The notes beneath the pieces were generated by a model, which was not told where the DNA came from, made no database searches, and saw only the letters and a program-made list of their open reading frames with translations. Below, piece by piece: positions 4,572-45,239 of a stretch of DNA of 64,000 nucleotides. The stretch is from Edaphobacter sp. (GTDB lineage Bacteria; Acidobacteriota; Terriglobia; Terriglobales; Acidobacteriaceae). Within the stretch, counting starts at the first letter, position 1. Every line of letters starts with the position of its first letter. The stretch lies in contig NZ_DASUBE010000083.1 of assembly GCF_035763405.1 (NCBI RefSeq), forward strand, positions 4,109 through 68,108, given 5' to 3'. Both the position numbers and the translations under genes were made by a program.

Positions 4572-6353
4572 TCACGGCCTCGGTCGCAGCTCCTTCAGAA
4601 ACGTCTTCGCCGTCGCCCGCGTATTCAACACGTCCGCCGCAGTCAGCCACGCTCGGCGCAACTGCGTGATTCCGTAGCGCATCTGGTCCAGTTCGCCCGT
4701 CGCGTGGGCATCGGTATCGACCACGATCTTGCAGCCAAGCTCCTTCGCCAGCCGCAGGTTCAGGTCGTTCAAATCGGAGCGGGCAGGCGCGGCATTGTGC
4801 TCCATCGCAACCCCCAGTTCCGCCGCCCGCCTGAGCACCTGATCGAGATGAATTTGAAACGCCTCGCGCTTCAGCACCAGGCGCCCCGTAGGATGCCCCA
4901 GAATGCGCACGTACGGGTTCTCAATCGCGCGCAGCACGCGGGCGGTCATCTCCTCGATGGGCTGGTTGAAATGCGAGTGCACGCTGGCCACCACAATGTC
5001 CATCTCGGCCAGCGTCTTGTCGGCCAGGTCCAGCGAGCCATCGGCAAGAATGTCCACCTCGATGCCCGCAAGCACGCGCATCTTCCCCTTGTGCTCCTTC
5101 TGTAACTCCGCGTCCACCTCGCGGATGCGCTTGATGTGAGCCATCGCGCGCTTGTCGTCCAGCCCGTTCGTCATGGCCAGATTTTTACTGTGGTCGGTGA
5201 TGGCGATGTAGGCCAGCCCGCGCGCCATCGCCGCCTCGGCCATCTCGCGGATGGTGTTGCGACCGTCGGTGGCCTCGGTGTGCATGTGCAGGTCGCCGCG
5301 AATGTCGGCCAGCGTGATGAGCTTAGGCAGTGTGTGCGCGGCGGCAGCCTCAATCTCGCCCGAGTTCTCACGCAGCTCCGGCGGAATGTAGTCAAGATCG
5401 AGTGCGCGGTAAATATCTTCCTCTGTCCGTGCAGCGACGATGGCGTTGTCGTCCAGCCGCGCCAGCGCATACTCGTTCAACGTCAGCCCGCGTTTGATGG
5501 CCCGCTGCCGCAACGCGACATTGTGCATCTTTGAGCCGGTGAAGTACTGCAACGCCGCGCCGTAGCTGGCACGCGGCAACAGCCGCACGTCTACCTGGAG
5601 ATTGTTGCGCAGCGTAAAGCTCACCTTGTTCTGCCCCTTGGCCAGCAGCTTGTCGATCAGCGGCAACCCGGCCACATGCTCGACGGCTGCCGCGACCACA
5701 CCCGGCTCGCACGCAGGCCCCGTCACCAGCAGGTCGAGATCGCCCACCGTCTCGCGCCCGCGCCGCAGCGAGCCGGCCGGAGTAATCTCGTCAATCCCCG
5801 GAAACGCGCGGATGAGCGCGGAGATCTTCTCGGCATACTCGTGCGCATCGTCGATGCGGAAGCGGCTCGAATTGCGCCGGTAGTCCTCGATCCCCTTCAG
5901 CAGCTTATCGGTAAACTTCTGCCCCATGCGCGGCAGGTCGGCCAACTTACCCTCTTTCGCCGCCGCTTCCAATGCATCGATGTCGGAGACGCCAAGCGCC
6001 GACCACACCAGCGCAACCGTCTTCGGCCCCATGCCCGGCAGGCGCAGCAACTCCAGCATCGTCGGCTTGTATTTTGCGAGTAGCTCTTCGCGCAGCGGCA
6101 TCGTGCCGGTCGAGACCATCTCGACGATGTTCGCGGCCATGCCTTTGCCGATGCCCGGAATGGCGAGCAGTTGTTTCAGGTCGCCTACCAGAGTCGAGAC
6201 TTGCGTCGTCTGCTGTTCGATGGCCTCGGCGGCGCGGCGGTACGAGCGGATGCGAAACGGATCGCCTGCATCGATTTCCAGCAGCGATGCAGTCTCGTCG
6301 AGCAGGCGGGCGATGGCGATATTGTCCATAGGAGGCTGTTCAGCGCGCAGCAC
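4572..6353 (-). CDS. polX: DNA polymerase X family protein with C-terminal PHP phosphoesterase domain
   Basis: It has N-terminal HhH/Pol beta-like regions (GIGKGMAANI, GMGPKTV, GSLRRGRETVGDLDLLV) and a C-terminal PHP domain (GDLHMHTEATDG...ITDHS...DTDAH). The start is uncertain, with an alternative ATG at 6329 (MDNIAIARLL). Confidence 0.9.
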   Translation of the reverse strand: MLRAEQPPMDNIAIARLLDETASLLEIDAGDPFRIRSYRRAAEAIEQQTTQVSTLVGDLKQLLAIPGIGKGMAANIVEMVSTGTMPLREELLAKYKPTMLELLRLPGMGPKTVALVWSALGVSDIDALEAAAKEGKLADLPRMGQKFTDKLLKGIEDYRRNSSRFRIDDAHEYAEKISALIRAFPGIDEITPAGSLRRGRETVGDLDLLVTGPACEPGVVAAAVEHVAGLPLIDKLLAKGQNKVSFTLRNNLQVDVRLLPRASYGAALQYFTGSKMHNVALRQRAIKRGLTLNEYALARLDDNAIVAARTEEDIYRALDLDYIPPELRENSGEIEAAAAHTLPKLITLADIRGDLHMHTEATDGRNTIREMAEAAMARGLAYIAITDHSKNLAMTNGLDDKRAMAHIKRIREVDAELQKEHKGKMRVLAGIEVDILADGSLDLADKTLAEMDIVVASVHSHFNQPIEEMTARVLRAIENPYVRILGHPTGRLVLKREAFQIHLDQVLRRAAELGVAMEHNAAPARSDLNDLNLRLAKELGCKIVVDTDAHATGELDQMRYGITQLRRAWLTAADVLNTRATAKTFLKELRPRP

Positions 6354-38731: not shown

Positions 38732-40795
38732 TTGACCATGACCAACCTTACCCGTGCGGCCTTCCCCATTCTCCTGTGCGCCGTCCTTGCTCTTCCCTCG
38801 CCCGCGCAGACCTCTGCCCCGACACACGGCATCTCCATCGCCAACATGGACACCACCGTCCACCCCGGCGACAACTTCTATCTCTATGCCAACGGCGGCT
38901 ACGTGGCCCGCACCAAGTTGCCGCCGGACCGCGCCGTGCTCAGCGTCTTCTCCATGCTGGACGACCTCAGCTCCAAACGTGTCGCCGGCATCATCGAAGA
39001 CGCGGCGAAGTCCAACGCGCCTGCAGGTTCCGACCAGCGCAAGATCGCCGACCTCTACCACTCCTACATGGACGAGACAGCCATCGAATCGCACGGCCTC
39101 GCCGCGCTCAAGCCGCGCCTCGACGCCATCGCGGCCATCAAGACGCCACGTGAACTCGCACACGCTCTCGGCCTCTCGCTGCGCGCCGACGTAGACGCGC
39201 TCAACAACACCAACTACCACACTGCGAACATCTTCGGCCTCTGGGTCGCGCCCAGCTTCAACGATCCCGACCACTACGCGACATACCTGCTCCAGGGCGG
39301 CCTCGAAATGCCCGACCGCGACTACTACCTCTCCGACTCAGCGCACATGAAAGACGTTCGCGCCAAATACCAGGCGCACATCGCCGCCATGTTCCGGCTT
39401 GCGGGAGTGCCCGACGGCGAAGCCCGCGCGGCCCGCGTCCTCGCGCTCGAAACCGCCATTGCCCACGTGCAGACCTCGCTGGCCGACAGCGAAAATATCG
39501 AGCACGCTAACAATCCCTGGAACGTCGCCGACTTCAAGACCAAAGCTCCGGGCCTCGACTGGGCCGAGTTCTTCCGCGCTGCCGGTCTCGACCAACAACA
39601 AACCTTCATTGTCTGGCAACCAGGCGCGTTCACCGGCGAAGCCGCGCTGGTCGCCTCGCAGCCTCTTGACGCATGGAAAGACCTGCTCGCCTATCACACC
39701 ATCGAAGACTACGCCGTCGGCATATCGAAGGCGCTCGCCGACGAGAGCTTCGCCTTCTTCGGCCAGACGCTCAACGGCACCCCCGCGCAGCGTCCGCGCA
39801 ACATCCGCGGCGTCCGCTTCGTCTCCGCCGTGCTGGGCGATGCCGTCGGCAAACTCTACGCCGAGCGATATTTTTCTCCGGAGGCCAAAGCACAGGCCCA
39901 GGCGCTCGTCTCGAATCTCCTCGCCGCCTTTCATCAGCGCCTCGAAAGCGTCACGTGGATGGCCCCGGCCACCAAAGCCGAAGCGCTCGCCAAACTCGGC
40001 ACGCTCCAGGTGAGCGTCGGTTATCCCGACCATTGGCGCAGCTATGCCGACTACAACGTCTCGCCCGACAACCTCTTTGAAAACATCTGGCGCTCGAACC
40101 TCTTCGAGTATCACTACTCGCTCAGCCGCATCGGCCAGCCGGTCGATCGCAAGGAGTGGTGCATGACGCCCCAGACCGTCAACGCCGTCAACCTGCCTCT
40201 CGACAACGGACTCAACTTCCCCGCGGCCATTCTGCAGCCGCCCTTCTTCGACCCCAAGGCCCCGGCCGCCGCGAACTACGGAGCCATCGGCACCATCATC
40301 GGCCACGAGATCAGCCACACCTTCGACTCGGAAGGCGCGGCGTTCGACTCCAAAGGCCGCGTTCGCAACTGGTGGACACCTGAAGACCTCGACCACTTCG
40401 AGGCCGCAACCTCCGCGCTCGCCGCACAATACAGCACCTACAAGCCCTTCCCCGATCTCGCCGTCAATGGCAAACAAACGCTCGGCGAAGACATCGCCGA
40501 CGTGGCCGGCCTCACCGCCGCATACGACGGTTTCCACGCTTCGCTTCACGGCAAAGAAGCGCCCAAAGTTCACAACTTTACCGGCGATCAGCAGTTCTTC
40601 ATTGCCTTCGCCCAGAACTGGGGCTCAGTCATCCGCGACGCGACCCTGCGCAAACAGGTCCTCACCGACCCGCACGCACCCGGACGTTACCGCGCCGAAA
40701 CCGTCCGCAACAACGACGCCTGGTACGCCGCCTTCGGCATCAAGCCCGGCGACAAGCTCTACCTCACGCCCAAGGAGCGCATCCACATCTGGTAG
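38732..40795 (+). CDS. M13 family metallopeptidase (PepO / endothelin-converting-enzyme-like)
   Basis: A signal peptide is present. The zinc motif is IIGHEISHTFD, followed by the downstream GEDIADVAGL (ExxxD) block and a C-terminal W. Confidence 0.9.
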   Translation: MTMTNLTRAAFPILLCAVLALPSPAQTSAPTHGISIANMDTTVHPGDNFYLYANGGYVARTKLPPDRAVLSVFSMLDDLSSKRVAGIIEDAAKSNAPAGSDQRKIADLYHSYMDETAIESHGLAALKPRLDAIAAIKTPRELAHALGLSLRADVDALNNTNYHTANIFGLWVAPSFNDPDHYATYLLQGGLEMPDRDYYLSDSAHMKDVRAKYQAHIAAMFRLAGVPDGEARAARVLALETAIAHVQTSLADSENIEHANNPWNVADFKTKAPGLDWAEFFRAAGLDQQQTFIVWQPGAFTGEAALVASQPLDAWKDLLAYHTIEDYAVGISKALADESFAFFGQTLNGTPAQRPRNIRGVRFVSAVLGDAVGKLYAERYFSPEAKAQAQALVSNLLAAFHQRLESVTWMAPATKAEALAKLGTLQVSVGYPDHWRSYADYNVSPDNLFENIWRSNLFEYHYSLSRIGQPVDRKEWCMTPQTVNAVNLPLDNGLNFPAAILQPPFFDPKAPAAANYGAIGTIIGHEISHTFDSEGAAFDSKGRVRNWWTPEDLDHFEAATSALAAQYSTYKPFPDLAVNGKQTLGEDIADVAGLTAAYDGFHASLHGKEAPKVHNFTGDQQFFIAFAQNWGSVIRDATLRKQVLTDPHAPGRYRAETVRNNDAWYAAFGIKPGDKLYLTPKERIHIW

Positions 40796-40861
40796 TTCGT
40801 GATCTGGTCATGGCAACGGGCGCATCTGTCCGATGCGCCCGCCTGCCGTTATCCTTGCTAC

Positions 40862-41536
40862 ATGGACCAGAAACTCTTCACTGAAGTTGACAGCTACCTT
40901 GCAGACAAACTCCTCGCAGAAGATGCACCGCTCCGCGAAGCCCTCAAGGCAAACGCAATAGCGGACCTGCCATCGATCGACGTCAGCCCCACACAGGGCA
41001 AACTGCTCTATCTGCTCGCTCGCATGGCAGGGGCCAAGCGCATCCTCGAAGTGGGCACGCTTGGCGGCTATAGCACCATCTGGCTTGCCCGTGCGCTGCC
41101 CAACGACGGCGTGCTGGTCACGCTCGAACTCAACCCAAAGCACGCTGAAGTCGCCGCTGCGAACATTCACCGTGCCGGACTCAGCCACCTTGTCGATCTG
41201 CGCGTAGGCCCTGCCGTCGAATCGCTCGCGCGTCTTCACGCCGAAAATACCGCGCGGTTCGACTTCATCTTTCTCGACGCCGACAAGCCCAACAACCCCA
41301 TCTATCTGGACTGGGCGATTAAGCTCTCGCATCCCGGAACCATCATCATCGGCGACAACGTCATCCGCGAAGGCGCAATCATCGACGCGAACGATACCGA
41401 CCCAAGCGTCGCAGGAACGCGCCTCTTTCTCGAAAAGCTGGGCAGCTATCCGCAGCTCGATGCCACCGCAATCCAGACCGTCGGCAGCAAAGGCCACGAC
41501 GGCTTCGCGCTCGCCATCGTCAACGAGAAAAGTTAG
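40862..41536 (+). CDS. Class I SAM-dependent O-methyltransferase (caffeoyl-CoA OMT-like)
   Basis: ILEVGTLGGYSTIWLA and FDFIFLDADK are SAM-binding motifs of the Methyltransf_3 type. The start is MDQKLF at 40862. Confidence 0.8.
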   Translation: MDQKLFTEVDSYLADKLLAEDAPLREALKANAIADLPSIDVSPTQGKLLYLLARMAGAKRILEVGTLGGYSTIWLARALPNDGVLVTLELNPKHAEVAAANIHRAGLSHLVDLRVGPAVESLARLHAENTARFDFIFLDADKPNNPIYLDWAIKLSHPGTIIIGDNVIREGAIIDANDTDPSVAGTRLFLEKLGSYPQLDATAIQTVGSKGHDGFALAIVNEKS

Positions 41537-42144
41537 GTCAGATCATCCGGGTTGAATGACGGCCGTTTCCGCCCCAGCGCCGAGACGTCATGCGCGCCGC
41601 CCACCAGGCCTTTCACTACCTGGTCGATCTCATCCTCAACATCAGCCGTCGCCACCATCCGCACCGGAGGGTCGGCCAGCTTGATGCTTTCGAGCAGCAC
41701 CGTCGCGTGCGCCACAGCAACGCCGTCCTGATTCAATCCCTCCGGAGTCTTCGCCTTGATGCCGACATCGCCCGGCTTCAGGCCCAGCAGTTCCGCCACG
41801 CGCTCGCGCATCTCGCCCGCAATCGGCACAATCTTCGGCTTCGTCATCACCAGCACCGTATCGACGTTGACGATCTTGTACCCTGCCATCGCCACCTCTT
41901 CCAGCGCCGTCTTCAGAAACACCCGCGAATCCACACCCTTCCATCGCGGATCGCTGGGCGGAAAGAACGTGCCAATGTCGCCCGCCGAGACCGCCCCCAG
42001 CAGCGCGTCCGTCAGCGCATGGAGCAGCACATCGCCATCCGAGTGGCCCGCCAGACCCTCCGGATGCTGAATCGCCAGCCCGCCAATCACCAGCGGCACG
42101 CCGGCCTTAAACGCATGTGAATCAAACCCGTAGCCAATTCTCAT
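41533..42144 (-). CDS. ispF: 2-C-methyl-D-erythritol 2,4-cyclodiphosphate synthase
   Basis: MRIGYGFDSHAF...GLAGHSDGDVLLHALTDALLGA...DIGTFFP is the IspF signature. It carries a C-terminal extension of about 45 aa. Confidence 0.9.
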   Translation of the reverse strand: MRIGYGFDSHAFKAGVPLVIGGLAIQHPEGLAGHSDGDVLLHALTDALLGAVSAGDIGTFFPPSDPRWKGVDSRVFLKTALEEVAMAGYKIVNVDTVLVMTKPKIVPIAGEMRERVAELLGLKPGDVGIKAKTPEGLNQDGVAVAHATVLLESIKLADPPVRMVATADVEDEIDQVVKGLVGGAHDVSALGRKRPSFNPDDLT

Positions 42145-42605
42145 TCCCATACACAATTCCTCAATGCATCGACCGCGGATTCACACGGATGAACACGGAT
42201 TTTTTTCTTTTCATTCTCCAGTATGAACCGTTTGAACTGAGCTCTGGGGCCGAAGTTTAAGAGCAATCCAACTTCCAGGTTCGTTTCACGGAGATAGTTC
42301 AACACCTGACTTTCGTGTGACCGATCAAAAGCCGACACGGCCTTCAACTCCACAACCACACAGCCATTGACCATCAAGTCCGCTCGAAAGTTCCCTATAA
42401 CCTGACCTCGAAAATGCACTGGAACTGGGACCTCCGAGTCAACGTTAAGACCGGCCTGTCGCAAGGCGATCTTCAAAGCTTGTTGATACACGCTCTCAAG
42501 AAACCCGCCTCCAAGTTCGTTGTAAACCTCGAAGAATGCGCCGATTACCTTCTCTGAAGTCTCCGAATGCAATCCATTAAAAGCAGTTCTTTGCTTTAAA
42601 TCCAT
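42141..42605 (-). CDS. GxxExxY family protein (PD-(D/E)XK nuclease fold)
   Basis: VIGAFFEVYNELGGGFLESVYQQAL contains G-x-x-E-x-x-Y. The ...DLMVNGCVVVELK... stretch gives the D...ELK nuclease-like core. The gene is about 50% GC by hand count on one 60 nt line, and its last 10 or so codons are encoded by the left inverted repeat. Confidence 0.8.
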   Translation of the reverse strand: MDLKQRTAFNGLHSETSEKVIGAFFEVYNELGGGFLESVYQQALKIALRQAGLNVDSEVPVPVHFRGQVIGNFRADLMVNGCVVVELKAVSAFDRSHESQVLNYLRETNLEVGLLLNFGPRAQFKRFILENEKKKIRVHPCESAVDALRNCVWE

Positions 42606-42647
42606 ATCTGTCTTTCATCCGCGTTCATCCGCGTGAATCCGTGGTCG
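42170..42647. mobile_element. 478 bp cassette bounded by 31 bp imperfect inverted repeats, carrying only the GxxExxY gene
   Basis: The left repeat is CGACCGCGGATTCACACGGATGAACACGGAT (42170-42200). The reverse complement of the right repeat (42617-42647) is CGACCACGGATTCACGCGGATGAACGCGGAT, so 28 of 31 positions are identical. No transposase is present. Confidence 0.6.
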
Positions 42648-43353
42648 ATCTTCTCAGGTAAAACTCCGCCAACTCAATGTCTCCCGGCTGCGTAATCTTG
42701 AAGTTCCGCGCCGACCCCGGCACCACGGCCACTTCAATCCCCGCGCGCTCCAGCAAACTCGCCTCGTCTGTCCCGGCAAAACCGTCGGCCTCAGCCTCGG
42801 CAAAGGCGCGGCGCATCAGTTTGCACAACGCGCCCTGCGGCGTCTGCGCATGAATGATCAGCTCGCGCGGAATCGTCGCCGTCACAATCGCGCCTTCGGC
42901 CGTGCGCTCCACCTGCTTGATCGTATCCACCGCAGGCAGACCCACAATCGCCGCGCCATGTTTGGCCACCGCGTCAATCGTTCGCTCAATCGTCGCGGGG
43001 TCAATCAGCGGACGCACCGCATCATGCACCAGCACCACATCATCGGGATGGCACTCGAGCGCAGCCAACGCATTGCCCACCGACTCCTGCCTATGGTCGC
43101 CGCCCTCCACCATGTGGACACGCGGCCCCAGCTTATGCGCCGTCACATGCGCCTCCACGCGCGCCCGCTCCGGTCCGCGCACCGCGATGCATACCGCGTC
43201 CACGCGCTTCACCGCAAGAAACGCCTTCACCGACCGGATCAGCACCGGCACGCCATCAATCTCCAGAAACTGCTTCGGCACAGCCGTGTGCGTGCCGCCC
43301 GCGGCCATCCGCGTTCCAATCCCTGCTGCCGGAAGAATCACAAATACTTGCAT
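42625..43353 (-). CDS. ispD: 2-C-methyl-D-erythritol 4-phosphate cytidylyltransferase
   Basis: MQVFVILPAAGIGTRM...PKQFLEI and VLVHDAVRP are IspD signature blocks. The last 7 codons and the TGA stop lie inside the right inverted repeat of the cassette. Confidence 0.9.
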   Translation of the reverse strand: MQVFVILPAAGIGTRMAAGGTHTAVPKQFLEIDGVPVLIRSVKAFLAVKRVDAVCIAVRGPERARVEAHVTAHKLGPRVHMVEGGDHRQESVGNALAALECHPDDVVLVHDAVRPLIDPATIERTIDAVAKHGAAIVGLPAVDTIKQVERTAEGAIVTATIPRELIIHAQTPQGALCKLMRRAFAEAEADGFAGTDEASLLERAGIEVAVVPGSARNFKITQPGDIELAEFYLRRSTTDSRG

Positions 43354-43421
43354 AAATACCCAGCGAAGTATAACAAGTCCGCGAACGTAGCCGCTCACGG
43401 GCCGCAGGCGATAATAGCCAT

Positions 43422-45239
43422 GTGTCCATCGCCGCCACGCCGTCGCCCGCAGAAGAGTACCGCCAGCACCAGCAGGCACGCCAGACGCTCGCCGCGCGCT
43501 TCGAGAAGACGCACATCCGCCTCGGCAACCTGCGCCTCGTCATCTTCCTCGCAGCCGCCATCATGGCGTGGTTCTCACTCGACCACGACACATTCTCCAC
43601 ATGGTGGCTTCTTGCGCCAGTCGCGCTCTTCGCAACTATAGCCGTCTTTCACGCACACATCCTCTACAAGCGCGAGCGTGCCGAACGCGCCGCAGACCAC
43701 TATGCCAAAGGCATCGCCCGCATCGAAGACCGCTGGACAGGCAATGGTCAACAGACGCAGCGGCCCGAGACCGCCAACCACGTCTATGCCGCCGATCTTG
43801 ACCTCTTCGGCCCGGCCAGCCTCTTCGAGCTGCTCTCACAAGCCCGCACGCGCATGGGCGAAGATACACTCGCCCACTGGCTGCTTGCTCCATCACCTAT
43901 CGCGTCACTCCGCCAGCGCCACGCCGCCATCGACGAGCTGCGCCCGCGTCTCGATCTCCGCGAAGACATCGCCGTTCTCGAAGGCAGCTCCCGCAAAGAC
44001 ATCAAAACCGGAGTCCATCCCGAGGCCCTCATCGGCTGGGCCGAAGCACCCGCACAATTAGTCCATCCGAATGTCCGCTGGCTTGCGCGCCTGCTCGCCC
44101 TCGCCGCCATCGCAACGGCCATCCTCTGGATCGAGTCCGGCACGAAAACGCCATTCTTCTCCGTTCTTATCATCGAAGCCGCCATCGCTGCGCTGCTGCA
44201 CAAACGCACCACCGAAGTCCTGCACGCAACCGCGCACGCCTTCGACGACCTCAAGCTCCTCTCCGCGCTCGTAGCCCGCATCGAGCGCGAATCCTTCACC
44301 ACGTCGCAGCTCCAAAACATCCGCAAAAGCCTCGTCTCGAAGCAACTCCCTGCATCGAAAGCCATCGCCCGTCTCGCCACCATCGCCGGCTACATCGACT
44401 CGCTCGAAAACCCCATCGTCCACTTCCTGGACATCCCGCTGCTCTACTCCGTCCAGACCGCCTACGCCGCCGAGGCCTGGCGGCGGGTCCACGGCAGCGC
44501 CGTCCGCCGCTGGCTCGAAGCCATCGGCGAAGCCGAAGCCCTGCTCTCCATCAGCGCCTACAGCTACGAACACCCCGCCGACTCCTTCCCCGACCTCATC
44601 GAAGACGGCCAGCCTCTGTTCGACGCAACACAACTCGGCCACCCGCTCATCCCCGCAGCAAAATGTATCCGCAACAACGTAAGCATTGGTGGAGTAGACG
44701 CAGCGCAGGCGCTGCTCATCAGCGGCTCCAACATGTCCGGCAAAAGCACCCTGCTGCGCGCCATCGGCATCAACACCGTGCTCGCCATGGCAGGCGCGCC
44801 GGTCCGTGCCGAGTCGCTGCGGCTCACCGCACTCCACGTCGGCGCCAGCATCCTCATCAACGACTCGCTCCAGCAAGGCAGCTCGCGCTTCTACGCCGAG
44901 ATCATCCGCCTCCGCCGCATCGCGGACCTGGCCGAAAAATCCCCGCCGCTGCTCTTCCTCCTCGACGAACTCCTGCAAGGCACCAACTCCAAAGACCGCC
45001 TCACCGGAGCCGCAGGCGTCGTCCGCGCACTGCTCGACGCCGGAGCCATCGGCCTCATCAGCACCCACGACCTCGCCCTCACCCACATCGGCAGCAACAA
45101 CGACCACCGCCTCCACAACGTCCACTTCCAGGACGAGATCGAAGACGGCCGCATGAAGTTCGACTACACCCTCCGCGACGGTGTCGTCACCCACAGCAAC
45201 GGCATCGAACTGATGCGCCTCATCGGCCTCAAAGTCTAA
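43422..45239 (+). CDS. MutS-related ATPase with N-terminal transmembrane region (no mismatch-binding domain)
   Basis: It uses a GTG start and has about 4 predicted TM helices in the first 260 or so aa. The C-terminal MutS domain V has Walker A GSNMSGKSTLLRAIG, then FLLDELLQGTN and STHD. Confidence 0.8.
   Translation: MSIAATPSPAEEYRQHQQARQTLAARFEKTHIRLGNLRLVIFLAAAIMAWFSLDHDTFSTWWLLAPVALFATIAVFHAHILYKRERAERAADHYAKGIARIEDRWTGNGQQTQRPETANHVYAADLDLFGPASLFELLSQARTRMGEDTLAHWLLAPSPIASLRQRHAAIDELRPRLDLREDIAVLEGSSRKDIKTGVHPEALIGWAEAPAQLVHPNVRWLARLLALAAIATAILWIESGTKTPFFSVLIIEAAIAALLHKRTTEVLHATAHAFDDLKLLSALVARIERESFTTSQLQNIRKSLVSKQLPASKAIARLATIAGYIDSLENPIVHFLDIPLLYSVQTAYAAEAWRRVHGSAVRRWLEAIGEAEALLSISAYSYEHPADSFPDLIEDGQPLFDATQLGHPLIPAAKCIRNNVSIGGVDAAQALLISGSNMSGKSTLLRAIGINTVLAMAGAPVRAESLRLTALHVGASILINDSLQQGSSRFYAEIIRLRRIADLAEKSPPLLFLLDELLQGTNSKDRLTGAAGVVRALLDAGAIGLISTHDLALTHIGSNNDHRLHNVHFQDEIEDGRMKFDYTLRDGVVTHSNGIELMRLIGLKV

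Follow-up and report, generated by a model that had tools for sequence, protein, structure and literature searches.

A GxxExxY nuclease gene within inverted repeat arrays at the ispD-ispF junction of an Edaphobacter, and its likeness to REPIN/RAYT systems

Two described systems come close to the locus reported here. In REPIN/RAYT systems, a gene that is single-copy and passed on vertically lies between inverted repeats, which are also present as gene-less hairpin doublets (PMC3116915, PMC3337134, bioRxiv 10.1101/2022.05.22.493013). In Coxiella burnetii, the 23S ribosomal RNA (rRNA) carries an intervening sequence (IVS) of 428 nt with a 28-bp terminal stem that is cut by RNase III, one small and decaying S23p open reading frame (ORF), and three GACAGAT heptamers in tandem ahead of the start codon; the origin of this insert is unknown (PMC4990558). 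We analysed 64,000 nt of DNA from Edaphobacter sp. (Acidobacteriaceae, contig NZ_DASUBE010000083.1), hereafter called the window, to whose full length all coordinates refer unless a locus is named. Here the genes ispD and ispF are separated by a cassette, namely a small GxxExxY nuclease gene lying between two inverted arms made of short tandem units, and all three genes are on the minus strand. REPIN/RAYT systems are the closest working analogy to this cassette, and the 23S IVS with its S23p ORF (a four-helix-bundle protein, PF05635) is the closest structural one.

As in REPIN/RAYT systems, inverted copies of a short repeat stand on both sides of the cassette gene, gene-less inverted doublets of such repeats form hairpins in intergenic and operon-junction positions, the copies that we examined in Acidobacteriaceae stand at one locus and appear to be inherited mostly vertically apart from one discordant lineage, the repeat differs in sequence from one gene lineage to another, and no target-site duplication is seen. 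In contrast, the cassette protein is a PD-(D/E)XK nuclease of about 120-150 amino acids and not an HUH (Y1) IS200-like transposase, its arms are tandem arrays of 7-11 nt units rather than a single imperfect palindrome, gene-less copies are apparently sparse in Acidobacteriaceae, and any activity of the cassette is putative. Given its PD-(D/E)XK protein, we do not file the cassette as a RAYT system, only as one that may work like it.

The two arms (Table 1) are 33 nt long, complementary at 30 of 33 positions (91%) and 416 nt apart, which makes them slightly longer than the pair at 42170-42200 and 42617-42647 from which an earlier, sequence-only reading of this DNA had proceeded. Each arm is built of three tandem 10-nt units with the core CGGAT. 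The tandem unit pattern occurs 4 times where 0.04 occurrences are expected, and a 28-nt arm pattern with up to three mismatches matched only these two arms in the window and had no match in 100 shuffles. Between the arms, the single credible ORF is the nuclease gene, so that the earlier identification of a GxxExxY/PD-(D/E)XK protein as the only ORF, with no transposase in the element, was correct. That reading had also estimated the GC content to be about 10 points below that of the flanks; it is indeed lower (0.46-0.52 against 0.60-0.68, roughly 47% against 62%), although the drop is nearer to 15 points.

Arms of this kind accompany the gene family at large. We examined 29 GxxExxY loci (from Acidobacteria, Gemmatimonadota, Chloroflexi, Xanthomonadales, Verrucomicrobia, Planctomycetes, Cyanobacteria and Chlamydiae). 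Of these, 25 carry inverted arrays with a score of 36 or more, whereas a single one of 164 control positions in the same loci does so (Mann-Whitney p 8e-16). In Sphingomonas, Treponema, Prevotella and Gemmatirosa, too, the gene has arrays around it or next to it. Since this association holds across phyla, the gene's proximity to a repeat is not a matter of chance. The arms invariably consist of short units in tandem, with cores that vary by lineage (CGGAT, CCGAT, CAGGAT, CACAGAT, CGAAG/CGCGAAG or CAAATC) and a period of 8-11 nt. Across phyla, unit type and nuclease tree agree in part; a CAGGAT cassette from Verrucomicrobia and one from Chloroflexi, for instance, are sisters. The consensus of 141 arrays, (A/C)C(A/G)CGGAT followed by two free bases, is informative at positions that the search pattern left unfixed, and the units hold sequence information beyond the needs of pairing. 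Most cassettes are found between genes that run in the same direction, a few bases behind a stop codon and a few ahead of a start codon, and the annotated plasmid or chromid examples were all co-oriented with their neighbours (4/4). In Sphingomonas parapaucimobilis (NZ_CP155749.1, positions 1971-2399 of locus L052), a cassette with CGCGAAG units gives the order fabD, nuclease, fabG, acpP, fabF, so that here, too, an essential operon has received an insertion. Such arms are not described in those passages of the literature on the GxxExxY family that we read, and the pairing of this nuclease family with hairpin repeats is widespread and apparently previously undescribed.

The nuclease passes both curated cut-offs, with 137.9 bits for PF13366 (cut-off 22) and 135.3 bits for TIGR04256 (cut-off 35). 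Across 33 diverse cassettes from more than 10 phyla, G34-E37-Y40, D76, E86-L87-K88 and Q100 are invariant or nearly so, and in an AlphaFold2 model with PD-(D/E)XK-type topology (pLDDT 81) the conserved residues are found on helix 37-50 and on strands 68-79 and 83-88. A Foldseek comparison with the PDB returned weak, generic PD-(D/E)XK matches (TM 0.4-0.5), the best being Cas4 (4ic1), an alkaline exonuclease (3syy) and MGME1; a PDB sequence search with the nuclease gave no match. The catalytic residues of the enzyme are intact. The ratio of nonsynonymous to synonymous substitution rates (dN/dS) was 0.07-0.19 for the nuclease and 0.03-0.26 for ispD and ispF (pairs with the L004 nuclease, an extraction artefact, were left out), and the nuclease gene is under purifying selection like its essential neighbours. 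The GC content at third codon positions (GC3) is 0.43-0.57 in the nuclease gene as compared to 0.61-0.85 in its neighbours, both in the window and in all orthologs (L001-L006, L035, L037 and L043). Synonymous divergence between nuclease orthologs ranges from about 0.9 to more than 2, yet their composition shows no drift toward that of the host, and in nearly every lineage and phylum the gene has a higher AT content than its host. Low GC is thus a standing trait of the family and no mark of recent arrival. The family is large, comprising 16,906 clusters at 50% identity with an E-value of at most 0.001 (4,985 with at most 1e-10), and a survey of PD-(D/E)XK proteins published in 2012 gives its function as unknown (PMC3424549). 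No PADLOC or PHROGs model matches the nuclease, a tblastn search of 50,697 phage records gave no match, and matches in plasmids are rare (8 of 72,556 records). Some family members (P0381, P0382, P0384, P0385, P0387 and others) are 250-280 amino acids long and have two tandem GxxExxY domains.

In a scan of one genome per species, nine other Acidobacteriaceae/Terriglobales were found to carry the nuclease gene between ispD and ispF (L001-L006, L017, L020 and L022). The junction is also filled in Edaphobacter aggregans GCA_003945235.1 (L035) and in two metagenomic populations (L037-L048), and in L043-L048 each of the three genes shares 4 nt with the next. We did not score L017, L020 and L022 as pseudogenes on account of their frameshifts, which may be assembly errors. 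The 27 closest homologs, when aligned, have common N-termini (MNADE/MSTDE..) and conserved tails (IRVxPxESAV) that are encoded by the arms. The empty state is represented by Edaphobacter modestus (L036, GCA_004217555.1) and E. aggregans GCA_000745965.1 (L173), where the ispD TGA overlaps the ispF ATG; the uninterrupted junction of the E. modestus type reads ..GCAGGTGCGCGATGAGCATGAGGATCGG... These empty, overlapping junctions bear out the proposal of an insertion between ispD and ispF that keeps both genes translatable. The sequence-only reading had proposed comparing relatives for empty sites and target duplications: the former exist, but no target-site duplication was found at the ispD|ispF cassettes.

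The C-terminal tails of the 120 closest ispD proteins define three classes: in 25 the tail runs on into a CGGAT arm, in 54 it is ..KA or something similar, and in 41 it is ..AGVR/..AGAR, the last class being the empty state, which forms one block in the ispD tree. The ..KA class holds filled loci (L035, P0142) together with three gene-less junctions that have spacers of 45-63 nt. These spacers look like deletion remnants because they retain arm-end pieces or a single unit. The window's closest relative (L033; ispD 89% and ispF 93% identical) has such a gene-less spacer. Two cassette lineages can be told apart, most cassettes having CGGAT units, while in L035 and Granulicella rosea (L006) every one of the six units is of the CCGAT type. 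When L035 is compared with L001, ispD and ispF are 92% and 95% identical but the nuclease only 63%; the L035 nuclease is 78% identical to that of G. rosea. In the cassette-protein tree, all ispDF cassettes form one clade in which the CCGAT pair is sister to the rest. The unit type follows the cassette and not the host. Taken together, the orthologs at the same junction, the gene-less junctions and the host-discordant L035 cassette point to an old and mostly vertical insertion, which some hosts later lost by deletion and whose lineages were exchanged between hosts at least once. The element is no recent or self-contained mobile cassette; it is old, mostly vertically inherited and under purifying selection.

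The arms also occur without the gene, and gene-less hairpins abound in metagenomes. Beside the gene itself, gene-less hairpins of matching unit type were found at loci from Anaerolineales, Chloroflexales, Prevotella and Gemmatirosa (L013, L019, L050 and L177). Scanning metagenomes with the pattern RCGGAT(N4)RCGGAT(N4)RCGGAT gave at least 120 loci. Among the matches listed, none of the 120 arrays stands beside a GxxExxY gene; 29 are hairpins in which three copies of GCCACGGAT are followed by a loop of 10-100 nt and three copies of ATCCGTGGC, 9 are pairs of arms around non-coding inserts, which in some cases are nested palindromes, and 82 are single arms. One hairpin lies just after pyrH on a Terriglobales contig (placed through pyrH homologs), and others lie just upstream of frr, tsaB, tsaE and a transaldolase-like gene, all named from translated sequences only. 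The earlier reading had named a general repeat beside unrelated genes as a finding that would count against it, and this is largely what the arms turn out to be: they are not private to the cassette but part of a general family of repeat-array hairpins, most of them without a gene. When compared with Rfam at its E-value threshold, ten hairpin loci gave sub-threshold microRNA-like matches only. A search for other protein cargo between arms (e.g. S23p) returned only GxxExxY genes, an unrelated IS200/RAYT-like gene and non-coding inserts. The IS200/RAYT-like ORF (L142 1510-2059, with an HVHIL motif) has an inverted repeat of its own, lies on a contig that also has a CGGAT array, and is unrelated to the nuclease.

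The window contains no gene-less hairpin. In soil metagenomes that contain its organism, contigs carry arm-like stretches of 32-42 nt in other contexts, including two gene-less hairpins. The depths of the other-context contig and of the window's contig were 15.5/14.2, 9.86/10.2, 13.7/12.4 and 8.59/9.19 for context A, and 14.6/14.2, 9.39/10.2 and 12.7/12.4 for context B. Because these depths track that of the window's contig, the source genome probably holds gene-less copies, few in number. A contig recurring in runs X1, X3 and X4 (matching window 42617-42648) joins a CGGAT-type arm directly to ATCGG-type units (..|ATCGGACTTTATCGGTGCAGATCGGTGTTA), so that both unit types stand side by side somewhere in these soils.

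Several loci show further arrangements of the arrays. In Prevotella nigrescens (NZ_CP082843.1, L050 2398-2780), three tandem 120-nt modules follow the nuclease gene, each of them holding a gene-less hairpin of CAAATC units; they are annotated as a 'hypothetical protein' (2392-2823), probably a spurious ORF. On the plasmid NZ_CP007129.1 of Gemmatirosa kalamazoonensis, the nuclease gene is not enclosed by arms and a gene-less CGCGGAT hairpin is found about 20 nt after its stop (L177 ~1880-1975); the same record has a second GxxExxY copy. At L149 9117-9161, a perfect five-fold tandem array of CGGATCACTA lies directly beside an apparent 3' half of a tRNA gene (GGTTCGAATCC).

At the ispD-ispF junction of the window, the arms reach into coding sequence on both sides, in the way that had been read from the sequence earlier. 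The last seven codons of ispD (..S T T D S R G) and its TGA (42627-42625) lie inside the 5' arm, the 3' arm supplies the tail of the nuclease, and the nuclease stop (42143-42141) overlaps one ATG of ispF (42144-42142). Of the two possible ispF starts, the ATG at 42150-42148 is the better placed. An equivalent of its GAGGAA stretch (..TTGAGGAAT..) is kept in cassette-bearing relatives, and the MxMRIG start of ispF is conserved in relatives. Near the other end, the mini-ORF MNADERQIWI* is a remnant of the ancestral nuclease N-terminus (MNADE.. in homologs) that is now out of frame. The ancestral ATG (42628-42626) overlaps the ispD TGA as ATGA, and the mini-ORF ends just past the present nuclease ATG at 42605; a frameshifted ancestral start followed by a new start at 42605 suggests a relay of coupled translation. 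Since no sigma-70-like promoter or intrinsic terminator was found between ispD and ispF, and since both junctions are bridged by assembled metatranscriptome contigs, the three genes are likely co-transcribed.

Table 1. Features of the ispD-nuclease-ispF locus in the 64,000-nt window.
Feature	Position	Strand	Evidence or detail
ispD (2-C-methyl-D-erythritol 4-phosphate cytidylyltransferase)	42625..43353	-	TIGR00453 E 1.5e-63, PF01128 E 1.2e-60
5' arm ('right repeat'), ATCGACC-ACGGAT-TCACG-CGGAT-GAACG-CGGAT	42617..42649	-	cores 42641-37, 42631-27, 42621-17
10-codon mini-ORF MNADERQIWI*	42596..42628	-	sequence and homolog N-termini
GxxExxY/PDDEXK_3 nuclease gene, 154 aa	42141..42605	-	PF13366 E 2.5e-40, TIGR04256 E 1.1e-39
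3' arm ('left repeat'), ATCCG-TGTTC-ATCCG-TGTGA-ATCCG-CGGTCGAT; encodes nuclease tail IRVHPCESAV	42168..42200	-	
GAGGAA, likely ispF ribosome-binding site (putative function), 6 nt upstream of ATG 42150-42148	42157..42162	-	
ispF (MEcPP synthase), start region overlaps nuclease gene end	41533..42150	-	TIGR00151 E 1.1e-52

The wider gene order is undisturbed, and the ORFs at 38732-41536 and 43422-45239 resemble the neighbours of ispD-ispF in relatives. On one flank, ORFs take the positions of M13-peptidase and O-methyltransferase genes, and on the other an ORF resembles the MutS-domain-V gene next to ispD in E. modestus (L036); these labels were taken from the Pfam tables of relatives. In some relatives, a third arm with the orientation and near-sequence of the 5' arm directly follows the ispF stop (L003 5097-5121, L004 5042-5056, L037 3578-3602, and also L038-L042), and where it is present ispF itself is bracketed by an inverted arm pair. 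It is degenerate in L022 (~5065-5100) and absent from the window, L001, L002 and L005. A comparison of window 41000-44000 with Rfam, at the E-value threshold, gave sub-threshold microRNA-like hairpin matches only.

We favour, with a probability of about 0.45 and thus slightly short of an even chance, the reading that the cassette is the counterpart of a REPIN/RAYT system built on a PD-(D/E)XK nuclease. A resident GxxExxY cassette, with a small intact nuclease gene inside two inverted three-unit arms, would have entered the ispD|ispF junction in an ancestor of an Acidobacteriaceae subgroup and would since have been inherited mainly vertically, with occasional loss by deletion and at least one swap of one cassette lineage for another. 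Its expression would probably rely on read-through of ispDF and on a relay of overlapping stops and starts, leading from ispD through the 10-codon remnant ORF to the nuclease and on to ispF. The arms are part of a family of repeat-array hairpins, most of them gene-less, and the product of the low-copy (perhaps single-copy) arm-flanked gene would recognise and cut unit arrays, thereby keeping or spreading the gene-less hairpins. The reading builds on the anatomy, distribution and conservation of the cassette and on the gene-arm association across phyla, all of which are observed, and adds to them by analogy a presumed action of the nuclease on the arms. Both arms are conserved in sequence, all tandem units have a common core, and the six cores changed together between the two cassette lineages; such shared and jointly changed cores fit unit recognition by a cassette-encoded factor better than pairing alone.

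A number of observations weigh against this reading. The action of the nuclease on the arms is inferred, and a PD-(D/E)XK nuclease by itself is not known to carry out transposition. The unit period, which ranges from 7 to 11 nt between lineages, is a poor fit to protein units bound on one helix face, and the uniformity of a tandem array can also arise from unequal exchange among its units. At 17 gene-less hairpins there was no consistent target-site duplication (none in 10 of the 17, and 1-3 nt at chance level in the rest), and no gene-less hairpin was found with both a filled and an empty version of its site. Within 218 kb of Acidobacteriaceae DNA, the only extra three-unit arrays adjoin ispF, which makes gene-less copies sparse in this family, and on the Prevotella replicon hairpins occur at 5 places, apparently only beside the gene. 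The 120 metagenome matches are the first of a longer scan and their number is a lower bound. Finally, the depth ratio in run X5 was 1.6, and depth is the sole basis on which contigs are assigned to the window's genome.

A wider claim would make the GxxExxY nucleases and their hairpins a second system of the REPIN/RAYT kind, spread over more than 10 phyla, distinct in mechanism and built on PD-(D/E)XK instead of HUH, in which the nuclease would maintain or spread a population of gene-less hairpins, with the 23S S23p intervening sequences belonging to the same array-armed class but having another partner protein. This is conceivable, although we consider it rather doubtful.

The main rival reads the insert at the RNA level. 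The arms would pair in the ispD-ispF transcript and RNase III would cut the 33-bp stem, either separating the cistrons or removing the insert, with the ORF as a passenger, as in an IVS. The likeness to the 23S intervening sequences is considerable, since both are inserts of 400-500 nt in an essential transcribed region with one small ORF, terminal inverted repeats, a predicted stem of about 30 bp enclosing the ORF and short tandem repeats next to the start codon. The Coxiella IVS is of the same design (PMC4990558), cassettes stand in transcribed operon junctions, and a Flavobacterium gene for a four-helix-bundle protein of the IVS protein family lies between gmk and nadD (PMC5524665). Moreover, the arms are predicted to pair as one long 33-bp stem in both the minimum-energy and the centroid folds of a 516-nt transcript (z -5.2; no shuffle out of 100 reached this stability). 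However, the cassette is found in an mRNA operon junction and not in helix 25 or 45 of the 23S rRNA, and neither wobble nor covariation of its arms favours an RNA stem. On the sense strand, mismatches comprised 49 G.U against 41 A.C overall and 33 against 33 outside the ispDF loci, so that G.U is not in excess; for gene-less hairpins the sample was too small for this comparison. Across ten orthologous arm pairs, the share of cells that pair is 85.5%, and covariation is no higher than in shuffles, apart from one compensated position. Selection for an RNA stem is therefore not evident. The stem would also hold the last codons of ispD, where ribosomes would melt it and where cleavage would strip the ispD mRNA of its stop codon, and the common core of all tandem units is not needed for pairing alone. 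The intact PF13366 gene, under strong purifying selection, is unlike a passenger, in contrast to the decaying S23p ORF of Coxiella (PMC4990558). On balance we find an RNA element of this kind unlikely.

A free-standing homing endonuclease gene is somewhat less likely still. In this case the nuclease would cut ispD|ispF junctions of relatives that lack the cassette, and their repair on a copy that carries it would spread it. One PD-(D/E)XK homing enzyme is known (I-Ssp6803I), the active site of the nuclease is intact, and, as with the phage seg/mob genes, a small nuclease gene lies between two conserved essential genes. Presence and absence at one precise site among close relatives, the two cassette lineages that occupy this site in partial discordance with the host genes, and the finding that every Acidobacteriaceae context examined for the closest homologs is this junction, would all be expected of homing. 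But homing has no need of inverted arms, which are a constant companion of the gene in every phylum and at many unrelated junctions. Homing genes typically invade and then decay, whereas the cassette has been retained for long, mostly vertically and without decay, at a dN/dS like that of its essential neighbours. The empty junctions form a single clade, which one ancient gain or loss could explain, and four metagenomes containing the window's organism held no contig joining ispD directly to ispF.

Less probable again is a domesticated host gene with operator-like arms, whose protein would bind arrays at gene boundaries and tune ispD/ispF and other operons, or resolve the structures of long palindromes, with no mobility. 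Such a role would agree with the long conservation of the gene at one locus under purifying selection, with the third arm after ispF in some relatives, and with the arrays at the starts or stops of housekeeping genes such as pyrH, frr, tsaB, tsaE and the transaldolase-like gene. It is at odds with the patchy presence of the gene among close relatives and a phylogeny that crosses phyla, with a gene that is nearly always AT-richer than its host, as is usual for selfish genes, and with the nested non-coding inserts between arms. The gene-less hairpins, at 75-120 nt and with terminal inverted repeats, intergenic or operon positions and likely co-transcription, recall miniature inverted-repeat transposable elements (MITEs) and small palindromic repeats such as Correia/NEMIS, ERIC and BIME, but they show no TA or other target duplication and no evident DDE transposase partner, and their arms are internally tandem-repetitive. 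A DDE-type insertion sequence or MITE does not agree with the absent target duplication and with the lack of any transposase of a known class, the nuclease being the only ORF.

On a cautious reading, the cassettes are elements wedged into essential operons (ispDF, fabD-fabG), where they extend or overlap the neighbouring coding regions; their arms give rise to false protein tails and false ORFs in annotations, and the low GC of the nuclease gene should not be taken as a sign of recent horizontal transfer. If the nuclease does act on the arms, as the analogy with REPIN/RAYT systems suggests, a very common gene of unknown function would gain a role, bacterial genomes would have a second, independent solution to the long persistence of short repeats, and a route might open to the question, now some 30 years old, of where the 23S intervening sequences come from. 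With 16,906 clusters in the family, settling the role of this nuclease would matter well beyond the ispD-ispF junction.

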